A DNA stretch of 37,530 nt from Thermodesulfobacteriota bacterium. GTDB taxonomy: Bacteria > Desulfobacterota > WTBG01 > JAGOGO01. The stretch lies in contig DATEXU010000194.1 in assembly GCA_035256645.1 (NCBI GenBank), positions 1 through 37,530 on the forward strand, read 5' to 3'. This document shows positions 6,231-37,530 of this stretch, piece after piece; position 1 is the first letter of the stretch; every line of letters begins with the position of its first letter. The translations under genes were made by a program, and so were the position numbers. The notes below the pieces were generated by a model. It ran no database searches. It had not been told where the DNA came from and saw only the letters and a list, made by a program, of their open reading frames with translations.

Positions 6231-6376
6231 ACCAAATTCACTCCATGCTTAAAAAAATTTCACGGAAAAATACCCTATATGGGCTACCTATGACTATCTT
6301 CATTCACCGGTCTCTCATAATTCTGCGTAAGATAAATTTTTCTGCTTATAACCGCTGGTTTTAATTTAGTCGTTAG

Positions 6377-7378: not shown

Positions 7379-7383
7379 ATAGG

Positions 7384-12300: not shown

Positions 12301-12345
12301 TGGAAGTGTTTGTAATGTTAATATTTTAAAAAGGAAACCAGCGAC

Positions 12346-13635: not shown

Positions 13636-13655
13636 CAGAGGAGGACTATTTTCTG

Positions 13656-15537: not shown

Positions 15538-15548
15538 GTTATACAAAA

Positions 15549-18016: not shown

Positions 18017-18089
18017 GGGCGGATAGCTCAGCTGGGAGAGCGCCGGCCTTACAAGCCGGATGTCACAGGTTCGAACCCTGTTCCGCCTA
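18017..18089 (+). tRNA. tRNA-Val (anticodon UAC)
   Basis: Hand-folded 73 nt. Acceptor gggcgga/tccgcct (G1-U72), D arm gctc/gagc, anticodon arm ccggc-cttacaa-gccgg, T arm acagg-ttcgaac-cctgt. No encoded CCA. Confidence 0.88.
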
Positions 18090-18718: not shown

Positions 18719-18782
18719 AACGGATGGCTAATATCGGAGAGGCAAACGCCGGAGGTCGTAGGTTCGAAACCTGCTTCGCCTA
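18719..18782 (+). pseudogene. Degenerate tRNA-Val copy lacking the anticodon arm
   Basis: cggatggctaatatcggagag aligns with the D-arm region of tRNA-Val. gccggaggtcgtaggttcgaaacctgcttcgcctattgaat aligns with its 3' part (35 of 42 positions by eye). The T stem keeps pairing through compensatory changes. The acceptor no longer pairs and the anticodon stem-loop is missing. Confidence 0.6.
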
Positions 18783-18900
18783 TTGAATGAAAAACAAAAA
18801 GGCCTGATTTTTTTCAGGCCTTTTTGTTTTTTGAATTATTTTCAACAATAACCCCGGTCCTTTACTTTTTTGTTGACTTTTATCCTGGTTAAAATTAAAA
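18776..18900 (+). repeat. ~125-bp repeat, copy A (tRNA-3'-end-like lead, terminator hairpin, conserved tail)
   Basis: Aligns by eye over its whole length with 27727..27850, roughly three-quarters or more identical. A 19-nt identical block, aaaaaggcctgattttttt, is included. Confidence 0.7.
18796..18830 (+). terminator. Rho-independent terminator (potentially bidirectional)
   Basis: A-run, then stem ggcctga / tcaggcc with a 6-nt T loop, then tttttgtttttt. Confidence 0.75.
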
Positions 18901-19766: not shown

Positions 19767-19867
19767 AACCCCGTTAGAAGGCTTTCACAGGGGGCATTTA
19801 CCCCGTGATTTTTCACCCTGTTAGATATTTGATATCTAATAGGCAAGCGGTGCCTTTCTACCGGGGT
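19767..19867 (+). repeat. MITE-like structured repeat, copy 1
   Basis: A 28-nt block, aaccccgttagaaggctttcacaggggg, is identical to 36708..36735. Imperfect terminal inverted repeats accccgttagaaggc / gcctttctaccggggt. Internal hairpins gggg-cattta-cccc and ttagatat-ttg-atatctaa. Confidence 0.7.
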
Positions 19868-20983: not shown

Positions 20984-21514
20984 TTAAATGTAGTGGGCAA
21001 GAACCCGGCGGCTGGCGGAATCGAGTCGGCGCATATCCGGGATAAGGTATCGGATCCGGTGGGCGTCAATAATGAGAATCCGGTAGGTGCTCAGCCGGTG
21101 GATATCATCTTCATCATTGAGGACAAAACAGGTCTCACCCCGGTCGGTTTCAATCTGCCACTCCGATGGTTCAAAGCGCGATGATATCCCCATAATCTTT
21201 TTAATGATCGGAAGAAATTCGCGAACACCCAATTCTTCCGACAATATGTGACGAACCTGGCCGGGAAGTTGATTCAAATCCTCGATGCAGATTATTTCAT
21301 TACCATCCGCGTCACAAATGGAAACCCAGTGTTCCGGATCGGAAATCGGGAATATGCGGATGGGCTTCACGTCTATGTGCTCCCGCCCCTTTTGATCACA
21401 AAGCACCAAACAGCCCAAAGAATCCCGGAAAAGAGAAAAACCTTCTTTTATATCCGCATCATCCTTCTTCTCAAGGCGCTCGTCATCTCTCTTAAAAGAA
21501 TTTTTCACGCACAA
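20984..21514 (-). CDS. DUF1854-domain protein (cyanophycin-associated family)
   Basis: 176 aa. IRIFPISDPEHWVSICDADGNEIICIEDL, REFLPIIKKI, SEWQIETDRGETCFVLNDEDDIHRL and LDSASRRVL match my memory of the DUF1854 consensus. It lies directly downstream of the ABC gene. Confidence 0.7.
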   Translation of the reverse strand: MCVKNSFKRDDERLEKKDDADIKEGFSLFRDSLGCLVLCDQKGREHIDVKPIRIFPISDPEHWVSICDADGNEIICIEDLNQLPGQVRHILSEELGVREFLPIIKKIMGISSRFEPSEWQIETDRGETCFVLNDEDDIHRLSTYRILIIDAHRIRYLIPDMRRLDSASRRVLAHYI

Positions 21515-23895: not shown

Positions 23896-26565
23896 TCATG
23901 CAGGGTGTGGATGAGTGCTAAGATAATTTTGAAGATGCGCTATGGTTTCGTCAACAACATCTGCCTGGATCACCACTAATGTATTAGGACGCAAAAACCG
24001 CAAACCTTGGTCGATCGCGTTGAGTGAACCATAAACCTCCATGATTTCCTTAACCCGCGCCGTGCCGTTCATGCCCTTGCGAAACAGACCGATAATTTCT
24101 CCTTTTTCCCGCCCCCGCATATAGTGACCTTCATAGAGAATAACCGAGTCAAACGCTTCACCAAGGAGTAATCCTTGAAGAATAATATCGGAATCACGCC
24201 GGTCGCCCGCGGTGGAGTAAACAATGGTTCGATGGGGCGACGAAAAATTATCAAGGGCTTCGATGATAGCTTCTAACGACGAGGCATTATGCCCATAATC
24301 AACCACCATGGTAGCGCCATTGAGCTTTACCAGATTAAACCGGCCCGGAACGTTGTCGATATCAGCGGTAAAGGATGCCACCGAGGCCACGATTTTTTCC
24401 AGGGGTATCCCCAAAGACCACGCCGCCGCGATTGCCGCCAAGGCGTTTTCGATCTGGAATCGCACTCTGCCGTCAAGGGTAAGGGGGACGCAGTCAAGCG
24501 AGACCAGGTGTTGCTCTTGATCTCCGTCGGCAAGGATAACAGCGTCATGTCGCATGAATACCGCGCGGCCGGATTTGCGGCGGTGTTCCACGATCACCCG
24601 GTGGTCTTCGTTGCAGGCAAAAAATACTACCCGGCCCGGACAGTAGGGTGCCATCGCTGCCACCAAAGGATCAGCGGCATTCAGCACCGCGGTGCCTGTC
24701 CCGGGTGTAACCGCTTCTACTACCGTTCTTTTTACCACCGCCAATTTTTCCACGGTGTCGATGTCATACTGATCGAGATGATCTCCTTGGCCGATATTGG
24801 TTACTACCGCGACATCGCAGAAATCAAACCCTAACCCTTCACGGAGAATACCGCCTCGTGCCGTTTCCAAAACTGCGGCTTCGACGACCGGATTCAACAA
24901 AACCCCCCGCGCGCTCTGAGGCCCGCTGCAATCCTCATTGTCAATCCGCCGTCCGTCTATGTAAACCCCGTCAGTGCACGCCATTCCCACCTTAAGACCA
25001 CTGCCGTTGAGGATATGAGCGATAAACCGTGTTGTCGTGGTCTTGCCGTTTACGCCGGTTACGGCAACGATGGGAATTCTTCCGGTTTCGCCTTCAGCAA
25101 ACAACGTGGAGATGATTGCCTCCCCCACGGGCCTCGCGATCCCGTGAGAAGGCTGGGTGTGCATCCGTAAGCCGGGAGCGGCATTAACTTCCACGATTGT
25201 TCCTCCCTGTTCTCCCAGCGGACGGCTGATGTCCGAAACAATCAGGTCGACCCCCGCCACATCCAAACCAACCACCCGCGCGGCATCAATCACGGCCGTG
25301 GCCGCCTCAGGATGAACCTCATCAGTCACATCAATAGCAGTTCCCCCGGTGCTGAGGTTAGCGTTGCGGCGAATGAGAACCATCATCCCCGCGGGAGGTA
25401 TTGACTGCACGGTAAGCCCCTGTTCGGCGAGCACCGCCATTGAAACCGAATCGAGGGGGATTTTACTCAGGGGAAGCGCGTGGTGATTGCCCCGAAGAGG
25501 GTTTTCATTCTCCTTCTCGATCAGCTCAGAAACCGTATGCGTTCCATCCCCAATCACGTGAGCAGGCTCCCTCCGCGCCGCGGCAACCAATCGATCTCCC
25601 ACCACTAACAGACGATAATCCTGCCCGGGAATAAATTTCTCAACCAGGACCGACGACCCTTCGGAGGCTGCGGAGGTATAGGCGGTAATGACCTCTTCCT
25701 GACACGTGAGATTCACGGAAACACCTCGTCCTTTATTGCCATCAAGCGGTTTGACGACCACCGGCAGACCAATGTCACTCGCCGCCGCCCAGGCATCTTC
25801 TTCATTGTGTACGATCCGGCCTTTCGGCACCGGAACACCCACTGCCTTCAAAAGCGTTTTGGTTACTTGTTTATCCTGGGCAATCTCTTCGGCAATCGCC
25901 TTGGTTTGATCGGTCTCGGAAGCAAGGATGCGACGCTGGCGAGAGCCGTATCCAAACATGACAAGACTGCCGGAATTAAGTCTGCGCACCGGGATTTTCC
26001 GGGCGCGGGCAGCTTCTACAATCGCCCGGGTACTTGGCCCCAGGCAAATATCCTGGGCGATATCCTTTAAGCGATTTATCTCGCGTGATATATCAAAAGG
26101 GATATCGTGAACTGCTGAAAAACAAACCTCTGCCGCTACCTTCAAACACTCTTCGGCGAGCGCCTCTTCTTCATATTCTATGGCAATTTTGTAGACTCCT
26201 TGCTCAGATGTTTCCCGGCTTTTCCCATAACCAACATTGGTTCCTGCTAAGGTCTGCAGCTCTAAGGTAATATGTTCCAAGATGTGAGCGAGATACGTGC
26301 CGTCATGCAAGCGAGCGAAAAACCCACCACGCTCACCGCGACTGCACCGGTGTTCGATCATGGTGGGCAACCAGGTCATAAGGCGTTCGTTAAATCCCGG
26401 TATCTCATTGGAAGGAATATCATTAAATTGTTTAAGGTCTACCCATACCTCGAGTACCGGGAAATTTGCCCAAATATTAGGGCCGCGCAGGGTCAGCACC
26501 TTACGAATTTCCATGAATGGTAAGGTGCTGATTCTACTGCTATTACTACCATCATCCTTGTCCAT
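23896..26565 (-). CDS. cphA: Cyanophycin synthetase
   Basis: N-terminal LTLRGPNIWANFPVLEVWVDL, an ATP-grasp region (VVVKPLDGNKGRGV) and a Mur-ligase-like region (VTGVNGKTTTTR). ATG 26565 is preferred (ggaaagga SD 5 nt upstream). The ORF track start 26580 is a TTG. Confidence 0.92.
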   Translation of the reverse strand: MDKDDGSNSSRISTLPFMEIRKVLTLRGPNIWANFPVLEVWVDLKQFNDIPSNEIPGFNERLMTWLPTMIEHRCSRGERGGFFARLHDGTYLAHILEHITLELQTLAGTNVGYGKSRETSEQGVYKIAIEYEEEALAEECLKVAAEVCFSAVHDIPFDISREINRLKDIAQDICLGPSTRAIVEAARARKIPVRRLNSGSLVMFGYGSRQRRILASETDQTKAIAEEIAQDKQVTKTLLKAVGVPVPKGRIVHNEEDAWAAASDIGLPVVVKPLDGNKGRGVSVNLTCQEEVITAYTSAASEGSSVLVEKFIPGQDYRLLVVGDRLVAAARREPAHVIGDGTHTVSELIEKENENPLRGNHHALPLSKIPLDSVSMAVLAEQGLTVQSIPPAGMMVLIRRNANLSTGGTAIDVTDEVHPEAATAVIDAARVVGLDVAGVDLIVSDISRPLGEQGGTIVEVNAAPGLRMHTQPSHGIARPVGEAIISTLFAEGETGRIPIVAVTGVNGKTTTTRFIAHILNGSGLKVGMACTDGVYIDGRRIDNEDCSGPQSARGVLLNPVVEAAVLETARGGILREGLGFDFCDVAVVTNIGQGDHLDQYDIDTVEKLAVVKRTVVEAVTPGTGTAVLNAADPLVAAMAPYCPGRVVFFACNEDHRVIVEHRRKSGRAVFMRHDAVILADGDQEQHLVSLDCVPLTLDGRVRFQIENALAAIAAAWSLGIPLEKIVASVASFTADIDNVPGRFNLVKLNGATMVVDYGHNASSLEAIIEALDNFSSPHRTIVYSTAGDRRDSDIILQGLLLGEAFDSVILYEGHYMRGREKGEIIGLFRKGMNGTARVKEIMEVYGSLNAIDQGLRFLRPNTLVVIQADVVDETIAHLQNYLSTHPHPA

Positions 26566-26997
26566 ACCAATCCTTTCCAAACACCAGTTAATGGAACTAA
26601 TTTCCCCGCGAAATCATCCCACCATAATTTTTTTTAATTAGACAAAAAGTAGGTAATTCACTTTATCGAAATTTAATACTTTTTCAAGGAAATTATAGTA
26701 AGCTTTAAAAAGAAACCTTCAAAAATATCGGGTTCTTTATGGGATAAAGGAAATTTTCTTTTTTTTGGCAAAAAAAATTATCCCCTGAAACATATTGATT
26801 TTAATTGGTTCTTTGTGTTTGATTTTTTAAAGCGGCTGGGTGGTTATCCTTGCTTCATTTGGCATAAATCTTTTTTTTAATTATTTTCAGTTGGTTAGAA
26901 CTCATAAATCAGAGGTCAAGGAAATTGAACCGTGTTTTAAAAAGTGATACTCTTGGTGGCAGACAAATTATGTCCCTATCTATCACAGGAGGCGAAG

Positions 26998-27714
26998 ATG
27001 AAAAAAACATCTCTTATACTTATCGGTTTTCTTTTATTTTTTGCTGCATCCGGTAATGCCGGCTTATTGGATACTATTAAGCAGGGCGCGGGGATTCCCC
27101 AGCAAAAAAGCTCGGATGATAGCACCATCGCGTCTGGCCTGAAAGAAGCCCTCTCCATCGGGACTAAAAACGCGGTAACGTCTGTCTCTCAAACGGACGG
27201 TTATTTTGGCAATGCGATGATTAAGATTCTTATGCCCGAAAAAATACAGAATGTTGCCAGTGTGCTGGGAAAGTTAGGCTACCAAAAACAGGTGGATGAC
27301 TTTATTCTCAGCATGAACCGAGCCGCGGAAAAAGCCGCTCCCCAAGCCGCGTCACTTTTTGTCGGCGCGATCAAGGAAATGACCTTAGAGGATGCCAAAG
27401 GGATCCTTACGGGTAGTGATACTTCCGCGACCGATTACTTCAAGAAAAAAACCTCGGATAACATTTATACGGCCTTCAAGCCGATTATTTCTTCAAGCAT
27501 GAATGAGGTCGGAGTTACCCGCTCCTATAAAACAATGATGGACAAATACACCGCCTTACCGTTTATGAAGTCACCGTCCCTTGACCTTGACCATTACGTA
27601 ACCAACAAGGCGATGGACGGTCTTTTTTATATGATCGGACAGGAAGAGAAAAAGATCAGAACCAACCCGGCGGCACGGGTTACCGACCTTTTAAAGAAAG
27701 TCTTTGGAAAATAA
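26998..27714 (+). CDS. DUF4197-domain secreted protein
   Basis: Start chosen at ATG 26998 (aggagg SD), giving the signal peptide [48 protein letters not shown] and [38 protein letters not shown] match the DUF4197 pattern. Confidence 0.8.
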
Positions 27715-27726
27715 AAGCAAAGCGCT

Positions 27727-27850
27727 CCCCCTACTCAATGAATAAAAAGGCCTGATTTTTTTCTCAGGCCTTTTTTGTTTTCTGCATCCTTTTTATCAAC
27801 AACCCCGATCCGTTATTTTTATATCGACATTTACCTTGGTTAGAAATGAA
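27727..27850 (+). repeat. ~125-bp repeat, copy B
   Basis: Collinear with 18776..18900 in the same orientation, including the terminator hairpin and the tail caacaaccccgatcc...tcgacatttaccttggttagaaat. Confidence 0.7.
27744..27777 (+). terminator. Rho-independent terminator (bidirectional; serves the convergent DUF4197 and GT4 genes)
   Basis: aaaaaggcctga - tttttttc - tcaggcc followed by ttttttgtttt. Confidence 0.75.
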
Positions 27851-27866
27851 GGGCGGGTCGAAATTT

Positions 27867-28985
27867 TCAACACTTCGATTTCATCTTATTAAAAATACTT
27901 CCTTTCATCTTCTCTTTAAAAATTTTTCGGTCCCATTTCAGGGTATGATTCCTAATCGCCAGAGGATCAAATTCCTTTTCAATCGTAACAAACCTTTCGA
28001 TGGCATCAATGAGTGCATTACCATTCGGCTCATGAAAAAACAAGCCGGTGGGAACACTCCCCTCGGTTTTTTCTTTTTGATCATACGAGATGATCGTTTC
28101 TAATGCCCCTCCCCTGCCATAAGCGATCACCGGCCTTCCACTGGCCATAGCTTCCAACGGAACAATCCCAAAATCTTCTTCCCCCGAAAAAATCAGGGCC
28201 CGACATTTCGAATAGGCGTCAGCAACCACATCCTCCGGTAACCATCCGCAAAATTCAACATTCGGTCCAGCCTTCGCCTTGAGCCTTTTTTCCTCCGGAC
28301 CGGAACCGATAATTTTCAAAGGATAGCCCAACCGATTGAACGCCTCAACCGCCAGATCAATTCTCTTATACGGCGCCAGGGAAGAAACAATAAGAAAATA
28401 ATTCTCTTTCTGCTCGTGAATTTTAAATCGGTTACTATCCACCGGAGGATGTATTATCTCAGCTTCCCTTCGATAAAACTTCTTTATCCGATTCTCCACA
28501 TGTTTTGATATGCACATAAAATGATCTACCCGCTGGATCGAGGTCACATCCCATATCCGCAGGTAATGGATAAAAAACGGTATCATTCTATTTCGTTTTT
28601 CCCTGAAATACTCATCATACATATCCCATGCATACCGCATCGGCGTAAGCACATAAGAAATATGGAGAGCATCCGGTGGAGTAATAATCCCTTTGGCCAC
28701 GCAATGACTGCAGCTCAGGATAAGGTCATACCCTTTGAGATTGAAACTTTCTATCGCCATCGGGAACAAGGGAAGATATTTTCGGTAACCCTTTTTCGAA
28801 AAAGGGAGATTTTGAATAAAGGACGTCTTAATGGGCATTCTTTCGATACAAGGAGAAACAGAACCCGGCACGTGCAACAAAGTGTAAAGATCAGCTTGGG
28901 GAAAAAGTTCGCAAAAGATTTCAAGACACCTTTCCCCTCCCCGCATACCCGTAAGCCAGTCATGGATAATGGCTACTTTCACCAA
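27867..28985 (-). CDS. Glycosyltransferase family 4 (GT-B)
   Basis: 372 aa. N-terminus VKVAIIHDWLTGMRGGERCLE. EX7E-type region GEEDFGIVPLEAMASGRPVIA. Confidence 0.85.
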   Translation of the reverse strand: MVKVAIIHDWLTGMRGGERCLEIFCELFPQADLYTLLHVPGSVSPCIERMPIKTSFIQNLPFSKKGYRKYLPLFPMAIESFNLKGYDLILSCSHCVAKGIITPPDALHISYVLTPMRYAWDMYDEYFREKRNRMIPFFIHYLRIWDVTSIQRVDHFMCISKHVENRIKKFYRREAEIIHPPVDSNRFKIHEQKENYFLIVSSLAPYKRIDLAVEAFNRLGYPLKIIGSGPEEKRLKAKAGPNVEFCGWLPEDVVADAYSKCRALIFSGEEDFGIVPLEAMASGRPVIAYGRGGALETIISYDQKEKTEGSVPTGLFFHEPNGNALIDAIERFVTIEKEFDPLAIRNHTLKWDRKIFKEKMKGSIFNKMKSKC

Positions 28986-29031
28986 CGCGTTATCTCCTTT
29001 TTACTCTTCCTGTCTCTTGCCGGCAGTCTCT

Positions 29032-30009
29032 TTACGATTTTCTTTGCAAGAGCCTCAGATCGTTTTCAACCATCTCGTGAACAAGATCGCTAAACCGGTA
29101 GTTGTTGTTCCATCCGAGTTTCAATCGCGCTTTGGAGGAATCGGCCACGAGGTCGCAGATTTCACGTTGCCGGTAGTACATCTGATCGGTGACGACAAAC
29201 TCCCTGAAGTCTAATCCTAAAGCATCAAACGCGGTTGTGGCGAATTCCCTCACTGAGTGGCCCTCACCGGTACCGACCACATAGTCTTCAGGAGAATCAG
29301 CCTGTAACATCATCCACATCGCCTTAACATAATCTTTCGCATGGCCCCAGTCTCTTCTGGCATCCAGGTTTCCCAATCGGAGTTCCTTGGCCAACCCAAG
29401 TTTGATTTTTGCGGCATGCGACGATATTTTCCGCGTTACAAACTCAAAGCCCCGGCGGGGAGATTCGTGGTTATAAAGAATGCCGTTGACCGCAAACAGA
29501 CCATAGGCCTCCCGATAATTTCTGACCAAATGATACCCGGTAAGTTTGGAAATACCGTAAGAGGACCGCGGTCTAAAGGGCGTGTCCTCATTTTGAGGCG
29601 ATTCTTTTGTGTTACCAAACATTTCACTGGAAGCGGCAAAGTAAAAGCGGCATGAAGGAACGATCTCTTTTATCACGGAAAGCATATTATGGATGTCATT
29701 GATATTGGTCAACAGGGTAGAAAACTCGTCACTAAAAAAATCCGCGACAAAACTCTGGGAAGCAAGATGGTAACATTCATTTGGCTCGACTTTCTTGACA
29801 ACAGTGGAAACGCTGGGATAACTGTCAATTGACCCTAAATGAATGCTCAGGCGGTCCATAATATGGATGATCCGTGACATCCGGTGTTCGGGATCTTCAA
29901 TGGCCGAGCGCCGCACAATGCCATGAACTGCATAGCCCTTTTCAAGCAGAAATTCCGCGAGATAACTACCGTCCTGCCCGGTAATACCGGTGATCAGTGC
30001 TCTCTTCAT
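29032..30009 (-). CDS. gmd: GDP-mannose 4,6-dehydratase
   Basis: 325 aa. MKRALITGITGQDGSYLAEFLLEKGY.VHGIVRRS, YGISKL (YxxxK), LYNHESPRRG.FVTRKI. Confidence 0.92.
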   Translation of the reverse strand: MKRALITGITGQDGSYLAEFLLEKGYAVHGIVRRSAIEDPEHRMSRIIHIMDRLSIHLGSIDSYPSVSTVVKKVEPNECYHLASQSFVADFFSDEFSTLLTNINDIHNMLSVIKEIVPSCRFYFAASSEMFGNTKESPQNEDTPFRPRSSYGISKLTGYHLVRNYREAYGLFAVNGILYNHESPRRGFEFVTRKISSHAAKIKLGLAKELRLGNLDARRDWGHAKDYVKAMWMMLQADSPEDYVVGTGEGHSVREFATTAFDALGLDFREFVVTDQMYYRQREICDLVADSSKARLKLGWNNNYRFSDLVHEMVENDLRLLQRKS

Positions 30010-30025
30010 CTGATCTTTTCCCCTT

Positions 30026-31156
30026 TTACGTACCTAAACATTCTTCAAAAATTTTAAGATGCTCTTTTGCCGCCCTTTCCCAGCTGAAAAGCTTCGCTCT
30101 CTCGAGTCCCTTCGCTCTCAGGTTTTGCCTCATCACCTCATCCGTGAGCACCTCATGTATTCCCTGAGCGATGCTTTCCACATCATAAGGATCAACATAC
30201 CGTACTGCATCCCCACAAACCTCGGGAAGGGAACCCGCCCTTGATGTAACTATCGGACAACCGCACGCCATGGCCTCTAAAGGAGGCAAACCAAACCCTT
30301 CGTAAAGAGAAGGAAAAATAAAAGCCGCTGCCTCGGAATAAAGGTGGGGCAAATCCTCCTCAGGCACATAGCCCAAAAAAATAATTTTATCCTTTACTAA
30401 AAGCTTGTCAACCCTTTTCTCGATACCCGGATAAAAGTGAGGGTCTTTCTTGCCTCCAATGACAAAGGAGAGGTCGGTTAGATTCAACCGAGCAAATGCC
30501 TCGAGGCTCCTTTCCAGGTTTTTGTAGGGCCTCATGTCCCCGATATAAAGCAGATAGTTTCCCAGGCCATACCGCTTTTGCACCACACCCTTTTCCCGCG
30601 GATAAAACCTCTGCTTATTATATCCCTCAGAGATCACATAGATGGGTTTGTCCTTAATCGAATAGTAGGTAATTATATCCCGCTTCGTGTTTTCAGAAGT
30701 GCAGATAACGGCCCGCGCTTTCTTTAAAAGAAGCGGCACCGTATAATAAAAATAATATTTCATCCTCGGGTACATCTCCGGATATTTCATGGGTAAAATA
30801 TCATGCATCGTTATAATCTGTTTCAAAGGGGAGAACAAAATGCCCTCAGGAACAGTAGAATACAGTAACGATGCATTTTGTCTTCTTGATTTAAACGGCA
30901 GCATTGTTTGTTGCCAGAGAACCCTCATCAAATGCCCCGTGAACCCCAAAGCAGGTGACGTAAGGGGACTCACCCGGGTTACCTTTTCAGGATACATCTT
31001 CTTTAAGGCAGGAGAACTTGAATATACAGTAAAATCATAGTCGCACTCGGCCTTCAGTAATTCGAGAACCAGCTCATGGGTGTAGACTCCCAGACCGGTG
31101 GGGTTTTCATGGCCAAAGGTGGCATTGATGGCGACTCTGCTCTTATTGCCTTTCAT
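30026..31156 (-). CDS. Glycosyltransferase family 4 (GT-B)
   Basis: 376 aa. FPSLYEGFGLPPLEAMACGCPIVTS. 4-nt overlap with the upstream flippase gene. Confidence 0.88.
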   Translation of the reverse strand: MKGNKSRVAINATFGHENPTGLGVYTHELVLELLKAECDYDFTVYSSSPALKKMYPEKVTRVSPLTSPALGFTGHLMRVLWQQTMLPFKSRRQNASLLYSTVPEGILFSPLKQIITMHDILPMKYPEMYPRMKYYFYYTVPLLLKKARAVICTSENTKRDIITYYSIKDKPIYVISEGYNKQRFYPREKGVVQKRYGLGNYLLYIGDMRPYKNLERSLEAFARLNLTDLSFVIGGKKDPHFYPGIEKRVDKLLVKDKIIFLGYVPEEDLPHLYSEAAAFIFPSLYEGFGLPPLEAMACGCPIVTSRAGSLPEVCGDAVRYVDPYDVESIAQGIHEVLTDEVMRQNLRAKGLERAKLFSWERAAKEHLKIFEECLGT

Positions 31157-32415
31157 GGAGTGATCGTTCTCACTACCCGGGATAATGTTTCTCTGGCTGC
31201 GGTAATTGAGGAGCGTAAGACATCGGGCTCCCTCCTCAAAACGAAATAACCGCAGAGCGCCGCAACGAATATTTCGGTGGCTAAGGTAGCCCAGGCCGCT
31301 CCAACCGCGCCCCGGAGGGGTATAAGAAAATAATTGAGTATGATATTTAACCCTGCCCCCAGGAGAGCCGCCAATAAATAGAGCTTGTTCAGGTCGAGAG
31401 CGACAAGGGATTGGGTCGTTAAATGACCAAGGAAAACCGGGAGAATGACTAAAGCGAGCGTCTGCAAAACCGCTATGGAGCCAAAAAAATTCGGTCCGTA
31501 GACGAGCCTTATCAGACCCGGGGAAAACAGATAAAGCGCAATTGATGTCCCTAAACCAATACCTCCCAGGATAAAAAGGAGTTTCCCGAATATCTCTTTA
31601 AACCTGTCCCGCTTGGCAAGCATGGGAAAAAACACGATCATGATGATGCTGGGTATAAAGAAAACCCCTTCCATAATCCTATAGGCAACATTGTATACGC
31701 CCACCTCCATATCACCTCTCATCATTCCCAACATCACGCTGTCAATTCTAAAATAGATGAGCCAAAGAAAAGCAATCCCCCCAAGCACAACCCCCTCTTT
31801 AATCAAATTATTATACCTCAGAAGATCCGTTTTACTTTTTAAAATCTCCTTCAACTGTGGCCGTGATATAACGAGTAAAAGCACTATTCCAAAAAGAGCA
31901 GAACACGATAAAGTCACTGATCCCAGCAAGGCATTCCTGAATCCTAAAAACCAAAAGACGAACAGTAATCCCAGGGCAGAGATCTTTTGAACCGGGACAA
32001 TGATGCCCTCAAGTTTCATATTTTCAATGCCTCGAAAAAATGCAAAGATCACGTTTTGAAAAGAGATTATTACGAAATAAGGAAAAAGCAGAAAAAGCGC
32101 ATTGCGATCAACCTTCAAAAACAAAGAGGCTATAAAAAGGAGAGGAAATGCGGTTAAAGCCGCAATTAGCCTAATGATGAACGCCTTTTTTACCACATCC
32201 ACTTTGCCCCGACTTACCCATTTGGCAATGATGATATCTAATCCCATCTCGACCAGGGGCTGAACGATAATAAAGGAAAGGGCCAAAGCAAAGGAAAACT
32301 TCCCATACTCTTTAAGACCGATGGAGAGGGGAAGCAATAAATAAAATAAAAAGATCGAAACCTTGCCGATCCCCTGTCCAAAGAATTGCCATCTGAGATT
32401 CTTAGCTGCCTTCAT
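31153..32415 (-). CDS. Wzx-like polysaccharide flippase (MOP superfamily)
   Basis: Polytopic membrane protein with about 12 or more hydrophobic segments. The N-terminus MKAAKNLRWQFFGQGIGK is typical of Wzx/RfbX. ATG 32415 is preferred over the track start 32475 because it reduces the overlap with the upstream gene to 14 nt. Confidence 0.75.
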   Translation of the reverse strand: MKAAKNLRWQFFGQGIGKVSIFLFYLLLPLSIGLKEYGKFSFALALSFIIVQPLVEMGLDIIIAKWVSRGKVDVVKKAFIIRLIAALTAFPLLFIASLFLKVDRNALFLLFPYFVIISFQNVIFAFFRGIENMKLEGIIVPVQKISALGLLFVFWFLGFRNALLGSVTLSCSALFGIVLLLVISRPQLKEILKSKTDLLRYNNLIKEGVVLGGIAFLWLIYFRIDSVMLGMMRGDMEVGVYNVAYRIMEGVFFIPSIIMIVFFPMLAKRDRFKEIFGKLLFILGGIGLGTSIALYLFSPGLIRLVYGPNFFGSIAVLQTLALVILPVFLGHLTTQSLVALDLNKLYLLAALLGAGLNIILNYFLIPLRGAVGAAWATLATEIFVAALCGYFVLRREPDVLRSSITAARETLSRVVRTITP

Positions 32416-33691
32416 GCTGAGAGTTTCCCGCCTCGGCCAGAAAATAAAGCCCGATAGTTGTAAAAGTAAAATCATGCATAAAAAAGTCCACCATTTGGGA
32501 CGCGAAAATCATAATCAAAGGAATTCCGATAATCGGACAATACAAATCCGCTCTCTTAAGCAGACTATAAATAAAGACAAGGAATAGTAAGAGACCGGGA
32601 ATCCCCAACTCAACCAGGAGATTTAAAAACAAATTATGCGTGTGATAACCTTCTTCCTTACGAATCCGCTTTCCGATAATCTTTTCAAACACCTCTATCC
32701 CCACACCGGTGATGGGTCGTTTTCTGATTTTCATCAGCGCTGCTTTCCACAACACAAATCTTGACGTTGATGTCCGCCGTGGAGTAAAAAATGCCGGGCT
32801 TTTGAGTTTTTCTACTACTACCACCAAACTTTTTTTCCTTAAATGCTTCTCCAGAGGGACCACTTTGCTCCCTCTTATCCCCAATTGATGAGTAGAAACG
32901 GGAAAAAACAAAATACAAAAAACCAAAAAACCCACAATAAAAAAACCCTTTCGTAATGTGATCACCTTATAGAGCCATGCCAGAAAAATCCCTGCGGGCA
33001 GAAGAAGCCACGAATTTCTGCTGGCTGCGAGAGCAATCACTATCGTGAACAGAAAGAGACCCAGATAAAATTCAAAAGTCGAAATAAATTTCTCTTTACG
33101 CAATATTAATCCCAGAAGTATTCCGATACCCATAAGAACCCCAAGCTGGTTAGGCCACTGCATGAGGGAGCTGATTCGGGGATATACATCCAAGGAATGC
33201 GGGGACCTAAATAAGGGAAAAAACCATAGATCATGAAACAAATATTCTACGATACCGAATACAGCGAGAAGTATCAAAAAGCGAAGTATCCAGCGATAGT
33301 AGGAAAACGGTTCTCGTTTATTATGTGTCAGGATTAAAAAAGCGACCAGCACGATGAAGTGGATGGAATACTTTACACTATACGTGAAGGCTATACCGTG
33401 AAAGTTACTAAAGAGCGCCGAAACCCACATCCAGATATAGAACAAAAATAAAAAAAACAATGCCTGGCGATGATATCTTAATGTTTCTTTGCATTGCCCT
33501 AAATTGAGCGCAACCAAGAGAATTGCGCATAGAGGGAGTAAAAGATTATACACGCCATAGCCAAGACCAGGAAGCTTCACGTGTACAAAAAGCGAAGAAA
33601 ATAGTAAGAGCACAAAAACCATCTTACTGGCCTGCAAAGAACTTTCTCTGCAGGCCTCAGGAAACATCCTCAAGGGTCTCGCCGCGTTCAT
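32402..33691 (-). CDS. O-antigen ligase/polymerase-like (Wzy_C domain) membrane protein
   Basis: 429 aa, polytopic. YHTHNLFLNLLVELGIPGLLLF matches the Wzy_C/O-antigen-ligase signature. Confidence 0.75.
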   Translation of the reverse strand: MNAARPLRMFPEACRESSLQASKMVFVLLLFSSLFVHVKLPGLGYGVYNLLLPLCAILLVALNLGQCKETLRYHRQALFFLFLFYIWMWVSALFSNFHGIAFTYSVKYSIHFIVLVAFLILTHNKREPFSYYRWILRFLILLAVFGIVEYLFHDLWFFPLFRSPHSLDVYPRISSLMQWPNQLGVLMGIGILLGLILRKEKFISTFEFYLGLFLFTIVIALAASRNSWLLLPAGIFLAWLYKVITLRKGFFIVGFLVFCILFFPVSTHQLGIRGSKVVPLEKHLRKKSLVVVVEKLKSPAFFTPRRTSTSRFVLWKAALMKIRKRPITGVGIEVFEKIIGKRIRKEEGYHTHNLFLNLLVELGIPGLLLFLVFIYSLLKRADLYCPIIGIPLIMIFASQMVDFFMHDFTFTTIGLYFLAEAGNSQHEGS

Positions 33692-33997
33692 AATAACACA
33701 TGGAAAAAGGGTGAATTTAACGGATAGCTTTGTATGACTACCCCTCCTTTTTTATAGAAAAAAGTTACTTTATTCAACACGTTAATTTTCAAAAAGTCAA
33801 CCAAATTATTCCCTTTATTATGAAGAAAATATGGTCGGGTAATTAGTCTCAGTCCTTCACGCGCTTCCAAAATCTCTGTAATTGCCTCACCGTCAACACC
33901 CGCACATTTTACAGTGAAGGTCGCAGTGGTTGGTTAGTTCTATATCAACTACTGTTGGTGCAAAACAACGAAACCGCGAAAAAACAAAGGGAACCAA
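33688..33997 (-). pseudogene. Frameshifted, truncated radical-SAM gene remnant
   Basis: Hand translation of the minus strand gives (TTG 33997) ..VVDIELTNHCDLHCKMCGC-stop (33893), a textbook radical-SAM CX3CX2C N-terminus (motif at 33902..33925). The reading continues one frame over as the 60-aa ORF 33688..33870. The total is far too short for a functional enzyme. Confidence 0.4.
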
Positions 33998-34074
33998 TCT
34001 TAACGACTGAAAAAAAGGGGTTGTTTTAATCTTTTGAAAAGAATGTAGTAAAGCCAGAGTGGGTGAAGAAAATT

Positions 34075-34791
34075 TTAGTTCACTTTTTTTTCAATCAAAC
34101 TCTCAGTAATTGTTGTACCAACTTTTTTCCCTCGTTGGCGGTCGAGAGCGGCTTTGAGGATCTGAACACGCTGGTTAATGAAACTGCGTTTTATGATACC
34201 CTTATTCTGTTTATGAAGACGCCGGAGAAGAACCAAATCAGGCAGTATGATCATCGAGAGACCTTTCTCCATCGCTCTTAGGTACCAACTCATGTCGGTT
34301 CCTACGACCCATTGAGTTTCAAAGAGACCAACTCGAAAAAAAGCTTCTCGCTTGATGAGCATTGCCTGCATCAAATGTCCTGGCAGTAATTCATCAGTAC
34401 AGCGTATTTTTTTTCTCTCACTTTCATCCATTTCCGGACTGTAGAATTGTTTTACGTACCCAGTAACGATATCCGCGTGAGGATTGGCATGAAAAGCGGT
34501 CATCTGAAGTTCGTTTTTATTTTTCGTCCAAAGATCATCAGCGTCAAGAAAGGCAATAAATTCGCCTTGAGCGGCAACAATACCGGCGTTTCGAGCTGCC
34601 CCAAGCCCCTGATTGGTTTGATACATATAGCGGAGGTTTTGATAGGATCGAGCAATGTCAGCAGTATTGTCGATTGACCCATCATCAATAATGATCACCT
34701 CAAATGGTTGATGTGTCTGGGCCAACACACTATCAATCGTTTCTGCTAAATAACGCTCGCCGTTATAAACCGGAATAATAACACTTATCAC
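34075..34791 (-). CDS. Glycosyltransferase family 2
   Basis: 238 aa. ISVIIPVYNGERYLAETIDSVLAQT, VIIIDDGSIDNT, FLDADDLW. A tandem paralogue of the upstream GT2, with a 4-nt overlap. Confidence 0.88.
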   Translation of the reverse strand: MISVIIPVYNGERYLAETIDSVLAQTHQPFEVIIIDDGSIDNTADIARSYQNLRYMYQTNQGLGAARNAGIVAAQGEFIAFLDADDLWTKNKNELQMTAFHANPHADIVTGYVKQFYSPEMDESERKKIRCTDELLPGHLMQAMLIKREAFFRVGLFETQWVVGTDMSWYLRAMEKGLSMIILPDLVLLRRLHKQNKGIIKRSFINQRVQILKAALDRQRGKKVGTTITESLIEKKVN

Positions 34792-35501
34792 CCTTGTTCC
34801 TCATCAAGAGAAGTTGATTTCTTCGTCTGGCCCTTGCTCCGCTGGCGGTCAATCGAAGATTTTAGTGCCCTCAAAACATCGTGACGCATTTCATCTAAAT
34901 GATGCGTTAGGTTCCGGTCGTGAACCCGGTAAATTAACAGCGTCTCCGGAAGAACGGCCATGGGAATTCCGGCATCCCTGGCCCGTGCTAACCATTCCGC
35001 ATTTTCGGCGAACTTGTAATCTGGATTATAATAACCCACCGTCTCGAAAATATTTTTTCGTGCGACTAAGGTACTCGGTATAAGCCCCGGGCTGTCGTGT
35101 TCAATATACCATGATGGCGTTTTAACCCCTTCTTCAATGATCATTCTTCGGTGAGCATAAACAAACCCCACATCAGGGTGTTGGGCCAAATACGAAACTT
35201 GCCTGCTTAATTTTTCCGGCATCCACATATCATCGGCATCGAGAAAAGCAAGAAACTCCCCTTGGGCCGCGGCAATACCGGTGTTCCGGGCACCTGAAAG
35301 ACCCTTATTTTTCTGGAAGAGATAACGAATATTCTTGTAGAAGCGCGCAATTTCAGCGGTGCCATCGGTTGAGCCGTCATCAACAACAATAATTTCAATT
35401 GGGCGATAGTCCTGAGCCAGCACGCTTTGAATGCTTTCCGCCAAATAACGCTCGCCGTTATAAACCGGAATAATAACACTTAATAAAGGTCCTTGCATCA
35501 C
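34788..35501 (-). CDS. Glycosyltransferase family 2
   Basis: 237 aa. LSVIIPVYNGERYLAESIQSVLAQDY, IIVVDDGSTDGT, FLDADDMW. Confidence 0.88.
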   Translation of the reverse strand: MMQGPLLSVIIPVYNGERYLAESIQSVLAQDYRPIEIIVVDDGSTDGTAEIARFYKNIRYLFQKNKGLSGARNTGIAAAQGEFLAFLDADDMWMPEKLSRQVSYLAQHPDVGFVYAHRRMIIEEGVKTPSWYIEHDSPGLIPSTLVARKNIFETVGYYNPDYKFAENAEWLARARDAGIPMAVLPETLLIYRVHDRNLTHHLDEMRHDVLRALKSSIDRQRSKGQTKKSTSLDEEQG

Positions 35502-35541
35502 TCACATCCTTTCCGGAAAACAAATAATACCTCAGGGTTCA

Positions 35542-36651
35542 TCACGCCCAGGCATTCACAGAATTATCATTTTTTGAAAGTAAATCTAAAATAATATCCG
35601 GCACGTTATCAGTATTTTTCCCAAGTTCTAAAAAATAACCTGGCAGGTGTCTGTTTAACCGGGCCATAAAGGATAGATCTTCCTGGGTCGCGCCCCGTAA
35701 CTGCAACATTGTACTGGGCGCAAAAGCCAATAAAGTGTCCCTTGGCGAAGCCGGGGTCAATCTGGTTTTTTCCCCACCTGTGATTCGTGGCACCAAGAGA
35801 GCGCGAACCGGAAAACCTCTTGAAATTTTTTCTGGCCAGTGTCTGTTTAAAAAAAGAAGGGCCTTCTCCTCCGCAAGCCGCTCTATATTCTCTGCTGCTA
35901 ATGCCAAATGAGGAAATCTTTGAAGACCTTTCTCGTCGATCTTGGCAGAGGAATAAACACTGTGGGCGTAAGGATGCGAATCCCTGTCCACCAGACAGTA
36001 ATCATCACTTACGTAACAAAGTTTCGATTGCAGACAGGCTAAAGCGGTCGTTGACTTTCCGGAACCGCCTTCACCGACCAGCAGTATACCACCTGTATCT
36101 ATGCCGATAGCTCCGGAATGCAGTAACTGAAGCCGGTGATTATTCGCCCACCATTGAAAAAGAGCGCGGAGCGGAGAACTTCGCTCATAATACGAGATTT
36201 TGAAGACATCAGGAACCCAAAAAATGGCAGTATTCAGTTTTGTATCCAGCATACTGAGCGTGTCTGTTCCTACCTGGTAAGCTCCGCGAATCCGTTCATC
36301 ATAAAAATATATGACCGGATTCGTTCCCTCGTTTGGACTTTGGATGTTTTTTGCCATCGTTACATTCTCATCCCAGGGAAAAGAGGGAATTTGTTTTTTT
36401 GTGGAAGCGCCATCCCATAAACAAACCGTCAACGATTGTTCCGGTACCCGTTCAGCAACTAAGTGTTCCAAGGCCGGAGATAGAGAGTCCACTAATGTTT
36501 GCCCCACAAAACGTAACCTTACCGTGTGATTGGCAATAGTATAAAATCGGTCTACAGCGCTTGTATCCTGTTCAGCGTCTAAAAAAACTCTGAAGGCTTC
36601 ATTGAAATATGAAAGTAACAAAATAAATGACCCGGTAGAAGAGTTTTTCAT
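35542..36651 (-). CDS. HPr-kinase-like P-loop protein (HprK-related kinase)
   Basis: 369 aa. GILLVGEGGSGKSTTALACLQSKLCYVSDDYCLV mirrors the HprK C-terminal catalytic-domain pattern G.L..G.SG.GKS..AL.L.....L..DD.V. P-loop codons verified at 36052..36075. Confidence 0.7.
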   Translation of the reverse strand: MKNSSTGSFILLLSYFNEAFRVFLDAEQDTSAVDRFYTIANHTVRLRFVGQTLVDSLSPALEHLVAERVPEQSLTVCLWDGASTKKQIPSFPWDENVTMAKNIQSPNEGTNPVIYFYDERIRGAYQVGTDTLSMLDTKLNTAIFWVPDVFKISYYERSSPLRALFQWWANNHRLQLLHSGAIGIDTGGILLVGEGGSGKSTTALACLQSKLCYVSDDYCLVDRDSHPYAHSVYSSAKIDEKGLQRFPHLALAAENIERLAEEKALLFLNRHWPEKISRGFPVRALLVPRITGGEKTRLTPASPRDTLLAFAPSTMLQLRGATQEDLSFMARLNRHLPGYFLELGKNTDNVPDIILDLLSKNDNSVNAWA

Positions 36652-36707
36652 GTGTCCCGTTTGTTATCCAAACGAGAGTTGAAAAGACAACACAATATTA
36701 GCAAGTA

Positions 36708-36810
36708 AACCCCGTTAGAAGGCTTTCACAGGGGGTAAATGCCCCGTGTAAAAAGTGTAAGAATCTTTAATTTTACCCCGTGCTTCTGCTCGGGGCATTT
36801 CTAGCGGGGT
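36708..36810 (+). repeat. MITE-like structured repeat, copy 2 (inside the pqqD-like / hprK-like spacer)
   Basis: Same 28-nt left block and same TIR type as 19767..19867. The central hairpin is gggg-taaatg-cccc, the reverse complement of the copy 1 loop. Confidence 0.7.
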
Positions 36811-36874
36811 AAACCTGAACTTATTTTTTTATTTTCGCTCAGAAATAAAATAAAGGTACTGACATTTCTTCACA

Positions 36875-37330
36875 TTATTCAGGTTTGTTTTTAGGCCAGT
36901 CGGTGTAATCAATTTCATGAATTGGGTCTACCAACAAAAAATCCTGCATGTTAGTAAATTTACTGAGAACCGGGAACTCGAAAATGAGTTTTTCTGTTTC
37001 GGAACCGATGGTATTTTTGTTATGAAAACTTTTGGTGCTTTCGGTTTTTTGCGTTTCATCCGGAACAATCAGTCCCTCCTCTTTTAATTCGCTCAAAAAT
37101 TTTTTTACCGCATCTTCAATAGTCGAAAAGCTCTCTACGTATCGCTGAGAAATCTCCTCGATGATTTCAGTCTCCGAAGCACGGTTTTGTATAAATCCCC
37201 AGATATCTGTCCCAACCTTTTCACAGCTATAGTAATTACCACTATCAAGATTAATTAAGACAAGTTCATCATCAAATTTCTCATAGACGACGCTCGGTTT
37301 ATTAATTCTAAATCGCAAATCTTTGTTCAT
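36875..37330 (-). CDS. PqqD-family (RRE-type peptide-binding) protein with ~60-aa C-terminal extension
   Basis: 151 aa, aagaggag SD. VVYEKFDDELVLINLDSGNYYSCEKVGTDIWGFIQNRASETEIIEEISQRY...AVKKFLSELKEEGLI matches the PqqD/PF05402 pattern. Confidence 0.75.
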   Translation of the reverse strand: MNKDLRFRINKPSVVYEKFDDELVLINLDSGNYYSCEKVGTDIWGFIQNRASETEIIEEISQRYVESFSTIEDAVKKFLSELKEEGLIVPDETQKTESTKSFHNKNTIGSETEKLIFEFPVLSKFTNMQDFLLVDPIHEIDYTDWPKNKPE

Positions 37331-37417: not shown

Positions 37418-37530
37418 CTACGCGATTTTTAAAACCTTAGCGCCTCTAATTTTTCGTTCCTTAAGTTCTACCAGCGCTTGATTTGCCTCCTCCAGTCTGA
37501 ATTCCTGAATCTCAGGCTTTATCGGAATTT
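37418..37530 (-). CDS. C-terminal end of a Zn-ADH / quinone-oxidoreductase-family (MDR) protein (partial, runs off the window)
   Basis: Hand-translated: ..IPIKPEIQEFRLEEANQALVELKERKIRGAKVLKIA-stop (stop at 37418..37420). This is the typical MDR C-terminus (L.eaN.Al..l...k.rGr.VL). Confidence 0.55.
   Translation of the reverse strand, partial: IPIKPEIQEFRLEEANQALVELKERKIRGAKVLKIA

Follow-up and report, generated by a model that had tools for sequence, protein, structure and literature searches.

Kinases of the HprK type phosphorylate a Ser residue in the precursors of lasso peptides and of linear polyphosphorylated peptides (LPPs) (PMC10368454, PMC13381572). BsfK is a kinase of a lasso peptide; its motif residues have been examined by mutagenesis, and it is strongly stimulated by BsfB1, a recognition element (RRE) of the kind that serves peptides that are made on the ribosome and altered after translation (RiPPs) (PMC10368454). 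In pseudomycoidin, the lasso enzyme N of the NTP_transf_5 family adds one or two hexoses to the phospho-Ser (PMC8498205). Lasso and LPP leaders bind their RREs through a [Y/W]xxPx[L/V/I] motif (PMC10368454, PMC13381572). The LPP clusters of Bacillota (Popov et al., Nat Commun 2026, PMC13381572) contain an RRE, a kinase, N, and an MsbA-like pump, have no cyclase, lie in capsule loci, and were reported to be restricted to Bacillota (PMC13381572). Here, we analyzed contig DATEXU010000194.1 of a Thermodesulfobacteriota bacterium, in which a PqqD-family RRE gene and a kinase gene stand within a polysaccharide operon. The window is the entire contig of 37,530 bases.

The PqqD-family protein (151 residues, 36875..37330) consists of an RRE domain, a disordered linker, and a conserved C-terminal tail. 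It is followed by a two-domain P-loop kinase of the HprK/phosphoenolpyruvate carboxykinase (PEPCK) superfamily (369 residues, 35542..36651), which was assigned by its motif, AlphaFold2, and Foldseek. These genes, and all those of the block described below, lie on the reverse strand. The original prediction, made from the sequence alone, had placed a 151-residue PqqD-family protein and a 369-residue protein with an HprK-type catalytic core here, and both reading frames and the core were confirmed. The finding that we add is a leader-like tail on every PqqD partner of this kinase family, which is new here. We lean towards the reading that the genes form a cassette descended from a phospho-lasso/LPP tailoring set (RRE B1, kinase K, nucleotidyltransferase N, and exporter D) and that it works via a leader in cis. 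No description of the cassette was found in the literature searched.

Like the LPP clusters, the cassette combines a discrete lasso-type RRE and an HprK-like kinase without a macrolactam cyclase, occurs in polysaccharide loci rich in glycosyltransferases, and has a leader motif of the [Y/W]xxPx[L/V] type. Unlike them, it has no SpI-like (SipW-type) peptidase, which was found neither in the window nor as a recurrent family among 113 other neighbors. There is no separate LppA-type precursor with a YxxPxVLxHQxIxFETxxS leader; the related motif is instead fused in cis to the C-terminus of the RRE and usually begins with Phe. Two or three conserved short family 2 glycosyltransferases (GT2s) are core members of the cassette. 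N and the MsbA-like exporter are lacking in the window operon but present in relatives, in which NTP_transf_5 lies nearby in 24 of 30 well-covered loci and an exporter with ABC_membrane and ABC_tran domains in 12 of the 30. The RRE profile scores lower on LppB than on TbiB1 or PbaB1. Finally, the cassette occurs in cyanobacteria, Deltaproteobacteria, Thermodesulfobacteriota, Nitrospirota, Chloroflexota, Chlamydiota, Planctomycetota, and Margulisiibacteriota.

The cassette shares a B1-type RRE and the same kinase motif and spacing with the phospho(glyco)lasso systems (paeninodin PadeK/B1, BsfK/BsfB1/BsfN, and pseudomycoidin PsmK/PsmN). In those systems, the RRE stimulates the kinase (BsfB1/BsfK), N adds hexoses to the phosphate, and an ABC exporter is present. 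The cassette differs from them because it has no A, C, or B2 gene, its kinase shares only a core of about 45 residues with BsfK, its RRE carries the cis tail, and GT2s and family 4 glycosyltransferases (GT4s) are conserved members.

The PqqD protein and its leader-like tail

The PqqD protein is a lasso-B1-type RRE. It passed the Pfam PqqD model (PF05402) with 52.7 bits against a gathering score of 23.4, and its AlphaFold2 model, built with 51 homologs, has a predicted local distance difference test score (pLDDT) above 90 across the RRE domain. The best Foldseek matches of this model were TbiB1-leader complexes (5v1v and 5v1u; target TM-score 0.89, rmsd 1.0, 30% identity), and TfuB1 (6jx3) was also among the closest solved structures. 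The RRE sequence profile scored 61.8 bits on TbiB1, 46.3 bits on PbaB1 (9x90), and 29.9 bits on LppB (9x8z). The winged helix-turn-helix domain spans approximately residues 12–90 (37061..37297), as determined by a hidden Markov model (HMM) alignment to TbiB1 that covers residues 13–88 and by DSSP. The lasso B1 chaperone models were matched below their cut-offs (NF033536, 52.2 against 80 bits; NF033530, 23.5 against 70 bits).

The PqqD partners are about 150 residues long, and their RRE domain is followed by a variable linker of about 25 residues and by a tail that is conserved above the level of the domain. In the window protein, the tail comprises residues 113–147 (EKLIFEFPVLSKFTNMQDFLLVDPIHEIDYTDWP, 36890..36994), with the leader motif F117-x-x-P120-x-L122. 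The consensus is K-x-x-F-x-x-P-x-L-x-K-[Y/F]-[T/S]-D-M-Q-[D/E]-[L/F]-L-L-[V/L]-D-P-I-H-[E/D]-[V/I]-D-x-x-x-W-P, so that the 35 conserved residues open with the lasso-type recognition motif [F/Y]xxPxL. The tail was found in all 58 aligned homologs and in 541 of 600 metagenome candidates. Among the 58, the conserved columns are F/Y117 (53 sequences), P120 (52), L122 (57), D135 (58), H138 (58), W145 (53), and P146 (57). The BsfA leader, SRKLIYKKPQLTYH, aligns to the tail profile with a score that only 9 of 2000 shuffles reached. We also considered whether the tail as a whole is homologous to the BsfA precursor and rejected this; the leader motif alone aligns (2.7 bits, p ~0.005 by shuffling), and the ungapped E-V/I-D match between the tail and BsfA past the motif is not significant. 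In about 100 loci, the motif DP[IV]H[ED][IV] is confined to the C-termini of PqqD proteins, and no other open reading frame (ORF) resembles the tail or its leader part.

In the AlphaFold2 model, the pLDDT falls below 50 in the linker (residues 95–111) and rises again to approximately 82–84 in residues 112–133. A strand at residues 123–125 starts right after L122. In the PbaB1-PbaA crystal structure, the three residues past the Leu of the motif extend the RRE sheet, which is the register of this strand. Therefore, the tail may most simply be docked on the leader cleft of its own RRE, judging from the pLDDT and the predicted secondary structure. LppB has been described as insoluble without a bound leader, and a tethered leader would thus have an obvious benefit.

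The same tail raises the question of whether the RRE protein is itself the substrate, that is, a fused RRE-precursor in which the kinase phosphorylates T/S126 or the C-terminal extension and the glycan is built there. The tail is the sole leader-like peptide in the cassettes, and LPP precursors share its layout, in which a short variable C-terminus comes after a conserved leader-like segment. Some cassettes are, moreover, self-contained amid unrelated neighbors. Residue 126 is Thr or Ser in 55 of the 58 sequences, but it is Asp, Glu, or Asn in the remainder and is followed by a predicted helix (residues 128–132); these exceptions and the position at the start of a helix suit an N-cap as well as a phosphorylation site. 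The extension past GWP has 1–28 residues (median 8). Ser or Thr occurs in 78 of 127 extensions (61%), and the extension of the window protein, KNKPE, has neither. A C-terminal Ser acceptor as in paeninodin was rejected because only 14 of the 127 sequences end in Ser. When the tail is lined up without gaps against BsfA and the LPP consensus, the position of the phospho-Ser falls on the invariant D135 or on P136. In addition, no protease is present for product release, and an MsbA-like pump is unlikely to export a protein of 17 kDa. We therefore consider it unlikely that the RRE protein is the substrate.

The kinase

HprK models match the kinase only at residues 172–227, and all of them below their curated cut-offs. 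Pfam Hpr_kinase_C (PF07475) scored 21.2 bits against 33.3 and covered residues 177–226 only. HprK-related kinase B (TIGR04355), the best-scoring NCBIfam model, reached 25.4 bits against 200. For the HPr-rel-A system, HprK_rel_A (TIGR04352) scored 20.3 bits against 200 and PqqD_rel_X (TIGR04353) 18.8 bits against 35. The pair resembles these systems in that a distant HprK-like P-loop kinase lies beside a PqqD-family protein, but the scores are far below the cut-offs and the window kinase matches in the P-loop region only. Membership of the kinase in HprK-related kinase A, HprK-related kinase B, or ScmC, searched with NCBIfam at E-values up to 10, was rejected at about a tenth of the cut-offs. 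The suggestion that the pair belongs to the HPr-rel-A system or to HprK-related kinase B, for which the original prediction had proposed this HMM comparison, was thus not borne out.

However, the HprK/P-type catalytic core, H...G-x-x-G-x-G-K-S...D-D with canonical spacing, is complete. It runs H178...G193-E-G-G-S-G-K-S200...D216-D217 (36001..36120). In an alignment of 21 homologs, seven positions of the motif H178-G193-G196-G198-K199-S200-D216-D217 are invariant, and G193 is kept in at least 90%. The spacing is identical to that of H148-G163-G166-G168-K169-S170-D186-D187 in BsfK. Judged from this alignment, the kinase retains all catalytic residues of this type of peptide-Ser kinase. The alignment of BsfK to the family profile is confined to residues 147–190, and the profile covers the solved HprK structures only at the P-loop region. 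The AlphaFold2 model of the kinase has a mean pLDDT of 88.5, and its Foldseek matches are PEPCK chains with a query TM-score of 0.5–0.57. Because matches that are limited to the core and lie below the cut-offs are combined with a complete catalytic signature, the kinase is a distant branch of the HprK-like kinases.

More than 900 homologs of the kinase were found, most of which carry Pfam PF27840 'ScmC', a more recent and broader model than the NCBIfam one; precomputed matches to this family are present in homologs up to 82% identical (P0002) and in P0015. A weak NCBIfam match links the kinase to the FomB small-molecule kinase family. The starts of the homologs fall at TTG 36621 of the window. 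Therefore, the true start may lie 10 codons past the ATG, which would give a protein of 359 residues.

Distribution and gene context

HMMER searches over 1.84 billion representative proteins placed 2,610 clusters, formed at 50% identity, in the kinase family at E≤1e-30 and 8,920 at E≤1e-3. The named sources include Nostoc, Nodularia, Cronbergia, and Chamaesiphon, and further members come from Deltaproteobacteria, Thermodesulfobacteriota, Nitrospirae, Ardenticatenaceae, Planctomycetia, Chlamydiae, and Margulisiibacteriota. Related loci (L-numbers) were gathered for comparison: 14 via the kinase, at least 80 via the PqqD tail, and 5 more by look-up. A contig scan with the kinase alignment was dominated by the generic P-loop pattern (6 loci), and the PqqD-tail alignment performed far better on metagenomes.

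The PqqD and kinase genes are nearly always neighbors, in most cases with translational coupling. Of the 53 PqqD-selected loci that extend far enough downstream, 42 have the kinase gene directly after the PqqD gene, and in 5 more it lies within three genes. Every kinase-selected locus with sufficient flank has a tailed PqqD gene immediately upstream. In 31 of 35 loci, at least one of the first three genes after the kinase encodes a GT2 or GT4, and a glycosyltransferase gene is near the cassette in 29 of the 30 well-covered loci. The two GT2s of the window are 42–69% (GT2a) and 49–69% (GT2b) identical over their full length to cassette GT2s elsewhere; the counterparts of GT2a are mostly encoded one to four genes downstream of the kinase. 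The GT4 encoded at 30026..31156 clusters with GT4s whose genes are often 3' of the kinase in other loci. The recurring cassette thus consists of the PqqD protein, the kinase, and two or three orthologous short GT2s, often with a GT4, an MsbA-like exporter, and NTP_transf_5. Natural fusions join GT2 to kinase, kinase to GT2, ABC exporter to kinase, and an epimerase/dehydratase-like domain to kinase. In a 5.2-Mb record (L098) and a Nitrospirae genome (L099), the cassette stands alone amid unrelated genes, in the order PqqD, kinase, two or three GT2s, exporter (L099), and NTP_transf_5; L099 has three GT2 genes. In a Deltaproteobacteria metagenome-assembled genome (L007/L008, 1–21080), it lies within a locus for the lipopolysaccharide (LPS) core and lipid A and comprises PqqD, kinase, a triple-GT2 fusion of 732 residues, and NTP_transf_5. 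The neighbors there encode heptosyltransferases, Kdo-family kinases, an ArnT-like PMT_2 protein, a sulfotransferase, LpxK, WaaA, MsbA, and LpxB. Linkage to Wzx/Wzy genes is seen only in the nearest clade (L095 and L096); elsewhere, an MsbA-like ABC exporter accompanies the cassette, or it stands alone. The proposed link of the pair to glycan genes, which the original prediction had asked to be checked by neighborhood analysis, therefore holds for glycosyltransferases, including the orthologous GT2s, but not for Wzx/Wzy genes in general.

This consistent glycan context, with GT2s, GT4s, sugar-nucleotide enzymes, and LPS-core or Wzx/Wzy loci, could also mean that the kinase acts on a sugar chain or a lipid carrier, in a priming or chain-terminating phosphorylation, and that the tailed RRE is a leftover structural or activating subunit. 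The fusions of the kinase to GT2, to the epimerase/dehydratase-like domain, and to the ABC exporter would fit such a role, as would the weak FomB match, the lack of a precursor gene and of a universal acceptor Ser in the tail, and the lack of an initiating phosphoglycosyltransferase in the cassette. The WbdD-type terminal kinases of ABC-transporter-dependent O-antigen are a precedent for glycan phosphorylation that controls assembly and export. The likeness is one of analogy only, in that the kinase gene shares a glycan locus with genes for glycosyltransferases and an ABC exporter; WbdD has an unrelated, eukaryotic-like kinase fold and no RRE, and no homology was detected here. On the other hand, every characterized relative of the kinase, the RRE, and the nucleotidyltransferase acts on peptides. 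The constraint on the RRE and its tail, with invariant tail columns and a ratio of nonsynonymous to synonymous substitution rates (dN/dS) of 0.15 against L096 as an average over both lineages, also exceeds what one would expect of a relic subunit. A kinase of glycans or lipid carriers with a relic RRE is, in our judgement, improbable but deserves serious attention.

Another possibility is a pathway of the SynChlorMet type (ScmC, ScmD, ScmE, and ScmF), in which the pair would serve a radical S-adenosylmethionine (rSAM)/SPASM maturase and the glycosyltransferases would be incidental. Both systems have a PqqD-like protein, an ScmC-like protein, and rSAM/SPASM genes. The homologs carry PF27840 'ScmC', ScmD is the second-best NCBIfam match of the PqqD protein, and an rSAM/SPASM gene follows the kinase or the GT2s in some relatives, with a stub surviving in the window. 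However, the window proteins fall short of the SynChlorMet models, with 11 against 125 bits for ScmC (TIGR04249) and 37.5 against 100 bits for ScmD (TIGR04248). An rSAM/SPASM gene lies near the cassette in only 4 of the 30 well-covered loci, and two side by side were never seen; the window holds the stub only, without an ScmE and ScmF pair. In contrast, the cassette is defined by its glycosyltransferases and NTP_transf_5, and its GT2s are conserved orthologs. The window copy has lost its rSAM gene, and the other genes are still constrained. A SynChlorMet-type pathway is accordingly quite improbable.

Two variants of the locus are worth describing. L038/L039 (approximately 3700–17700) has two kinase and two NTP_transf_5 genes in the variant order PqqD, NTP_transf_5, kinase. 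A DUF2784 gene lies directly upstream of its PqqD gene, and an rSAM/SPASM gene directly follows its second kinase gene. In L018, L019, L021, L022, L023, and L025, a conserved untranslated leader was seen about 250 nt upstream of the PqqD gene. ORFs in this region appear conserved in several frames, and Rfam gave no match. The conservation of the leader (86%) compared with that of the coding region (88%) is uninformative.

Search for lasso genes and a precursor

Neither a cyclase, nor a protease, nor a credible precursor ORF was found in the window, as the original prediction had stated. The A, C, and B2 genes of a lasso cluster are absent from the window, and none of them recurs in about 100 related loci. 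Among the 113 other neighbors, families from outside the cassette recur in four loci at most, and the Asn-synthase, transglutaminase, and signal-peptidase families are not among the recurrent ones. A separate precursor was sought in two ways and rejected. When 1,197 small ORFs from the surroundings of the cassettes were clustered, the groups consisted only of fragments of genes and of frames in closely related DNA, and searches with tail and leader HMMs over 25,281 six-frame segments gave noise only (E>0.3).

Since the PqqD gene starts 200 nt from the end of the contig, an ordinary kinase-associated lasso cluster could have been cut there, with its precursor, cyclase, and protease just past the end. 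This would be in keeping with an RRE that is closest to lasso B1 and with a kinase motif that equals that of the lasso kinases, and the original prediction had itself named such genes as the finding that would overturn it. However, the syntenic relatives L095 and L096 have a LUD gene and an alcohol dehydrogenase (ADH) gene upstream and no lasso genes. In the roughly 100 loci, many of which have 10-kb flanks, no Asn-synthase-like or transglutaminase-like gene recurs and no precursor-like ORF is seen. Because cyclase, protease, and precursor are missing here as well as in these loci, the window does not hold a truncated lasso cluster; any probability that we leave to one is very small. The earlier view that this is not an ordinary lasso cluster is supported, since the lasso genes are also absent from fully flanked relatives.

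Proposed mechanism and acceptor

According to the reading that we prefer, with descent from a phospho-lasso/LPP set and a leader in cis, the tail would occupy the leader cleft of its own RRE as a built-in leader. The permanently loaded RRE would bind and activate the kinase, and no separate leader peptide would be needed. The kinase would then phosphorylate a hydroxyl group on an acceptor. In complete cassettes, NTP_transf_5 would put a hexose on the phosphate, as in pseudomycoidin, and the dedicated GT2 and GT4 enzymes would extend it. The product would be exported by the ABC pump, or, in the clade of the window, passed to a Wzx/Wzy-type route.

Several observations weigh against this scheme. 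The docking of the tail was derived from the pLDDT and secondary structure only and not from coordinates. The first residue of the motif is mostly Phe, and known complexes hold the side chain of a Tyr or Trp by hydrogen bonds. Past the motif, there is no Ser/Thr acceptor common to all sequences. The likeness of the kinase to characterized peptide kinases is limited to the core of about 45 residues, and no function is assigned to its N-terminal domain. The window operon has neither NTP_transf_5 nor an exporter, and the full scheme therefore cannot run from the contig alone. An initiating phosphoglycosyltransferase is not present, and action of Wzx/Wzy on the same product is an assumption.

The absence of a universal Ser/Thr after the motif leaves the acceptor split. 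A peptide or protein in trans is a tentative candidate, and a glycan or lipid-linked intermediate is equally tentative. The C-terminal region of the RRE protein itself seems slightly less probable, and we give still less weight to another acceptor or to a non-functional cassette. The original prediction had listed a phosphoglycosylated peptide or protein among its candidates; the idea of phosphoglycosylation gains weight from NTP_transf_5 in the related loci, while the identity of the acceptor stays divided as described. The leader-like tail, a 2.75-kb deletion described below, the missing NTP_transf_5, and the parallel with the LPP clusters of Bacillota (PMC13381572) go beyond that prediction.

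The window copy and its closest relatives

In the window, the PqqD gene and the kinase gene are followed by two short soluble GT2 genes in tandem, GT2a (34788..35501; Pfam Glycos_transf_2, 141.6 bits) and its paralog GT2b (34075..34791; 130.5 bits), which share 73% nucleotide identity across 261 nt. A 383-nt gap separates GT2b from a gene for a Wzy_C-family membrane protein of the polymerase, ligase, or O-oligosaccharyltransferase type (32402..33691; Pfam Wzy_C, 68.7 bits), which is syntenic with L096. The gap houses the rSAM/SPASM remnant (33829..33997), which consists of a stub ORF of 34 residues at 33893–33997 and a deletion scar at 33829–33889. The stub is an rSAM N-terminus with CxxxCxxC (IELTNHCDLHCKMC; ORF sequence MVPFVFSRFRCFAPTVVDIELTNHCDLHCKMCGC), and its N-terminus matches the rSAM/SPASM genes 3' of the kinase in L038 and L068. 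A Wzx-type (MOP) flippase gene (31153..32475; Pfam Polysacc_synt, 67.6 bits) and the GT4 gene (30026..31156; Pfam Glycos_transf_1, 133 bits) follow. The block continues with a GDP-mannose 4,6-dehydratase-like gene, gmd (29032..30009; Pfam GDP_Man_Dehyd, 364.8 bits), whose product scores 365.7 bits on TIGR01472, below the cut-off of 415, and ends with another GT4 gene (27867..28985; Pfam Glycos_transf_1, 85.9 bits). This reproduces the order that had been read from the sequence. Both the flippase and the Wzy_C-family protein of a Wzx/Wzy-dependent locus are thus present. An initiating polyprenyl-phosphate phosphoglycosyltransferase was not found as a family match among the ten proteins encoded at 26944–37330.

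The pair had been described as the head of a polysaccharide operon. The block in one direction was confirmed, but the head position is open to doubt. The 3' end of a zinc ADH-like gene (37418..37530), recognized by its sequence and probably outside the system, has its stop codon at 37418–37420 on the same strand, 87 nt upstream of the PqqD gene; for this reason, the pair is not established as the operon head. The order LUD-ADH-PqqD is common to L095 and L096 and, as far as the contig reaches (ADH-PqqD), to the window.

L096, whose PqqD protein is 79% identical, has the order LUD, ADH, PqqD, kinase, GT2, GT2, rSAM/SPASM (383 residues), Phosphodiest (539 residues), Wzy_C, Wzx, and GT4. According to blastn, the window is colinear with L096 except that L096 7582–10326 (2.75 kb) is missing, a segment that contains most of the rSAM gene and the entire phosphodiesterase gene. 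The spacer between the PqqD and kinase genes (36652..36874) is a gain of the window relative to L096, where 21 nt separate the two genes. With 223 nt, it is the largest of 50; most relatives have a gap of −4 to +7 nt. The spacer contains a 41-nt repeat (36708–36748) that is 90% identical to 19767–19807 and may be a small element like a repetitive extragenic palindrome (REP) or a miniature inverted-repeat transposable element (MITE). The repeat is rich in CCCCG/CGGGG inverted motifs. No NTP_transf_5 gene, fragments included, is found on the window contig, and the intact L096 is likewise without it within 14 kb. The kinase gene (35542–36651, compared with L096 4710–5765) has 72% nucleotide and 64% amino-acid identity and has clearly diverged more than any other gene in the syntenic block; its neighbors have 80–83% nucleotide identity. 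The window copy is therefore a reduced, partly eroded version of the cassette. L095 (10001–20402) is the closest NCBI-held relative. Many of its genes are split or shortened, including PqqD (133 residues), kinase (209 residues), and fragmented GT2, Wzy, Wzx, and GT4 genes, and these breaks come from assembly frameshifts or from decay.

This erosion could mean that the module is a decaying remnant without a current function in this genome. The deletion took the rSAM and phosphodiesterase genes, the repeat splits genes that are normally coupled and displaces the region upstream of the kinase gene, inspection by eye shows no strong ribosome-binding site in front of the kinase start, NTP_transf_5 is lacking on the contig, and the kinase is the most diverged gene, with a dN/dS of 0.26 against L096 as a mean over both lineages. 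However, both ORFs are intact and keep all family-invariant residues. The dN/dS values against L096 are well below 1, although they are averaged over both lineages (PqqD 0.15, kinase 0.26, GT2a 0.165, GT2b 0.164, Wzx 0.225, and GT4 0.18), and on these sequence comparisons the surviving genes are under purifying selection. NTP_transf_5 could also be located elsewhere in the genome. A loss of function in this genome thus appears doubtful.

Other features of the contig

A cyanophycin-synthetase-like gene (23896–26580) lies beside an ABC exporter gene (21525–23831) and a DUF1854 gene (20984–21514). This exporter is the only one on the contig and appears unrelated to the cassette. At 1–2053 and 10832–11841, there is a large inverted duplication, whose arms (116–335 nt, 70–85% identity) cover a GT2 gene and the ORF preceding it. 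It brackets a segment of about 9 kb with an rSAM/SPASM gene (2350–3363), an ADH gene, an O-methyltransferase gene, a gene for an adenylation-PCP (peptidyl carrier protein)-thioesterase protein (7384–10011), and an IS1595-type transposase gene (10456–11421). This segment looks like a transposon-associated small biosynthetic island. A tRNA gene is located at 18017–18089, and a 41-nt copy of its 3' half (85% identity) lies 693 nt downstream at 18744–18788; such a duplication is a pattern often left by an integrating element. PADLOC models for anti-phage defense gave no match.

Implications

In its broadest form, the cassette would represent a widespread sister of the lasso and LPP pathways outside Bacillota, in which the RRE carries its leader in cis. 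We offer this proposal tentatively, and its two variants are taken together here. In one, a phosphate-linked glycan is assembled on the RRE protein as a self-contained carrier, which would amount to protein-primed glycan synthesis or to a fused RRE-precursor RiPP. In the other, the leader in cis acts as a switch that frees a RiPP kinase for leaderless and possibly non-peptide acceptors; if true, this would be a route of glycan priming without a classical phosphoglycosyltransferase.

RREs are thought to capture a separate leader. A natural RRE with a built-in leader would therefore be a new operating mode and the natural counterpart of the engineered leader-enzyme fusions in RiPP chemistry. The finding of 2026 that a kinase and an RRE occur without a cyclase in capsule loci is extended well past Bacillota, and the cassette, as a minimal system of five to seven genes, is open to reconstitution. 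It is abundant in cyanobacteria and in many uncultured lineages. Because a kinase and a nucleotidyltransferase of the RiPP type are tied in it to dedicated glycosyltransferases and exporters, the cassette probably makes a new class of phosphate-linked glycoconjugate, peptide or otherwise, possibly at the cell surface.

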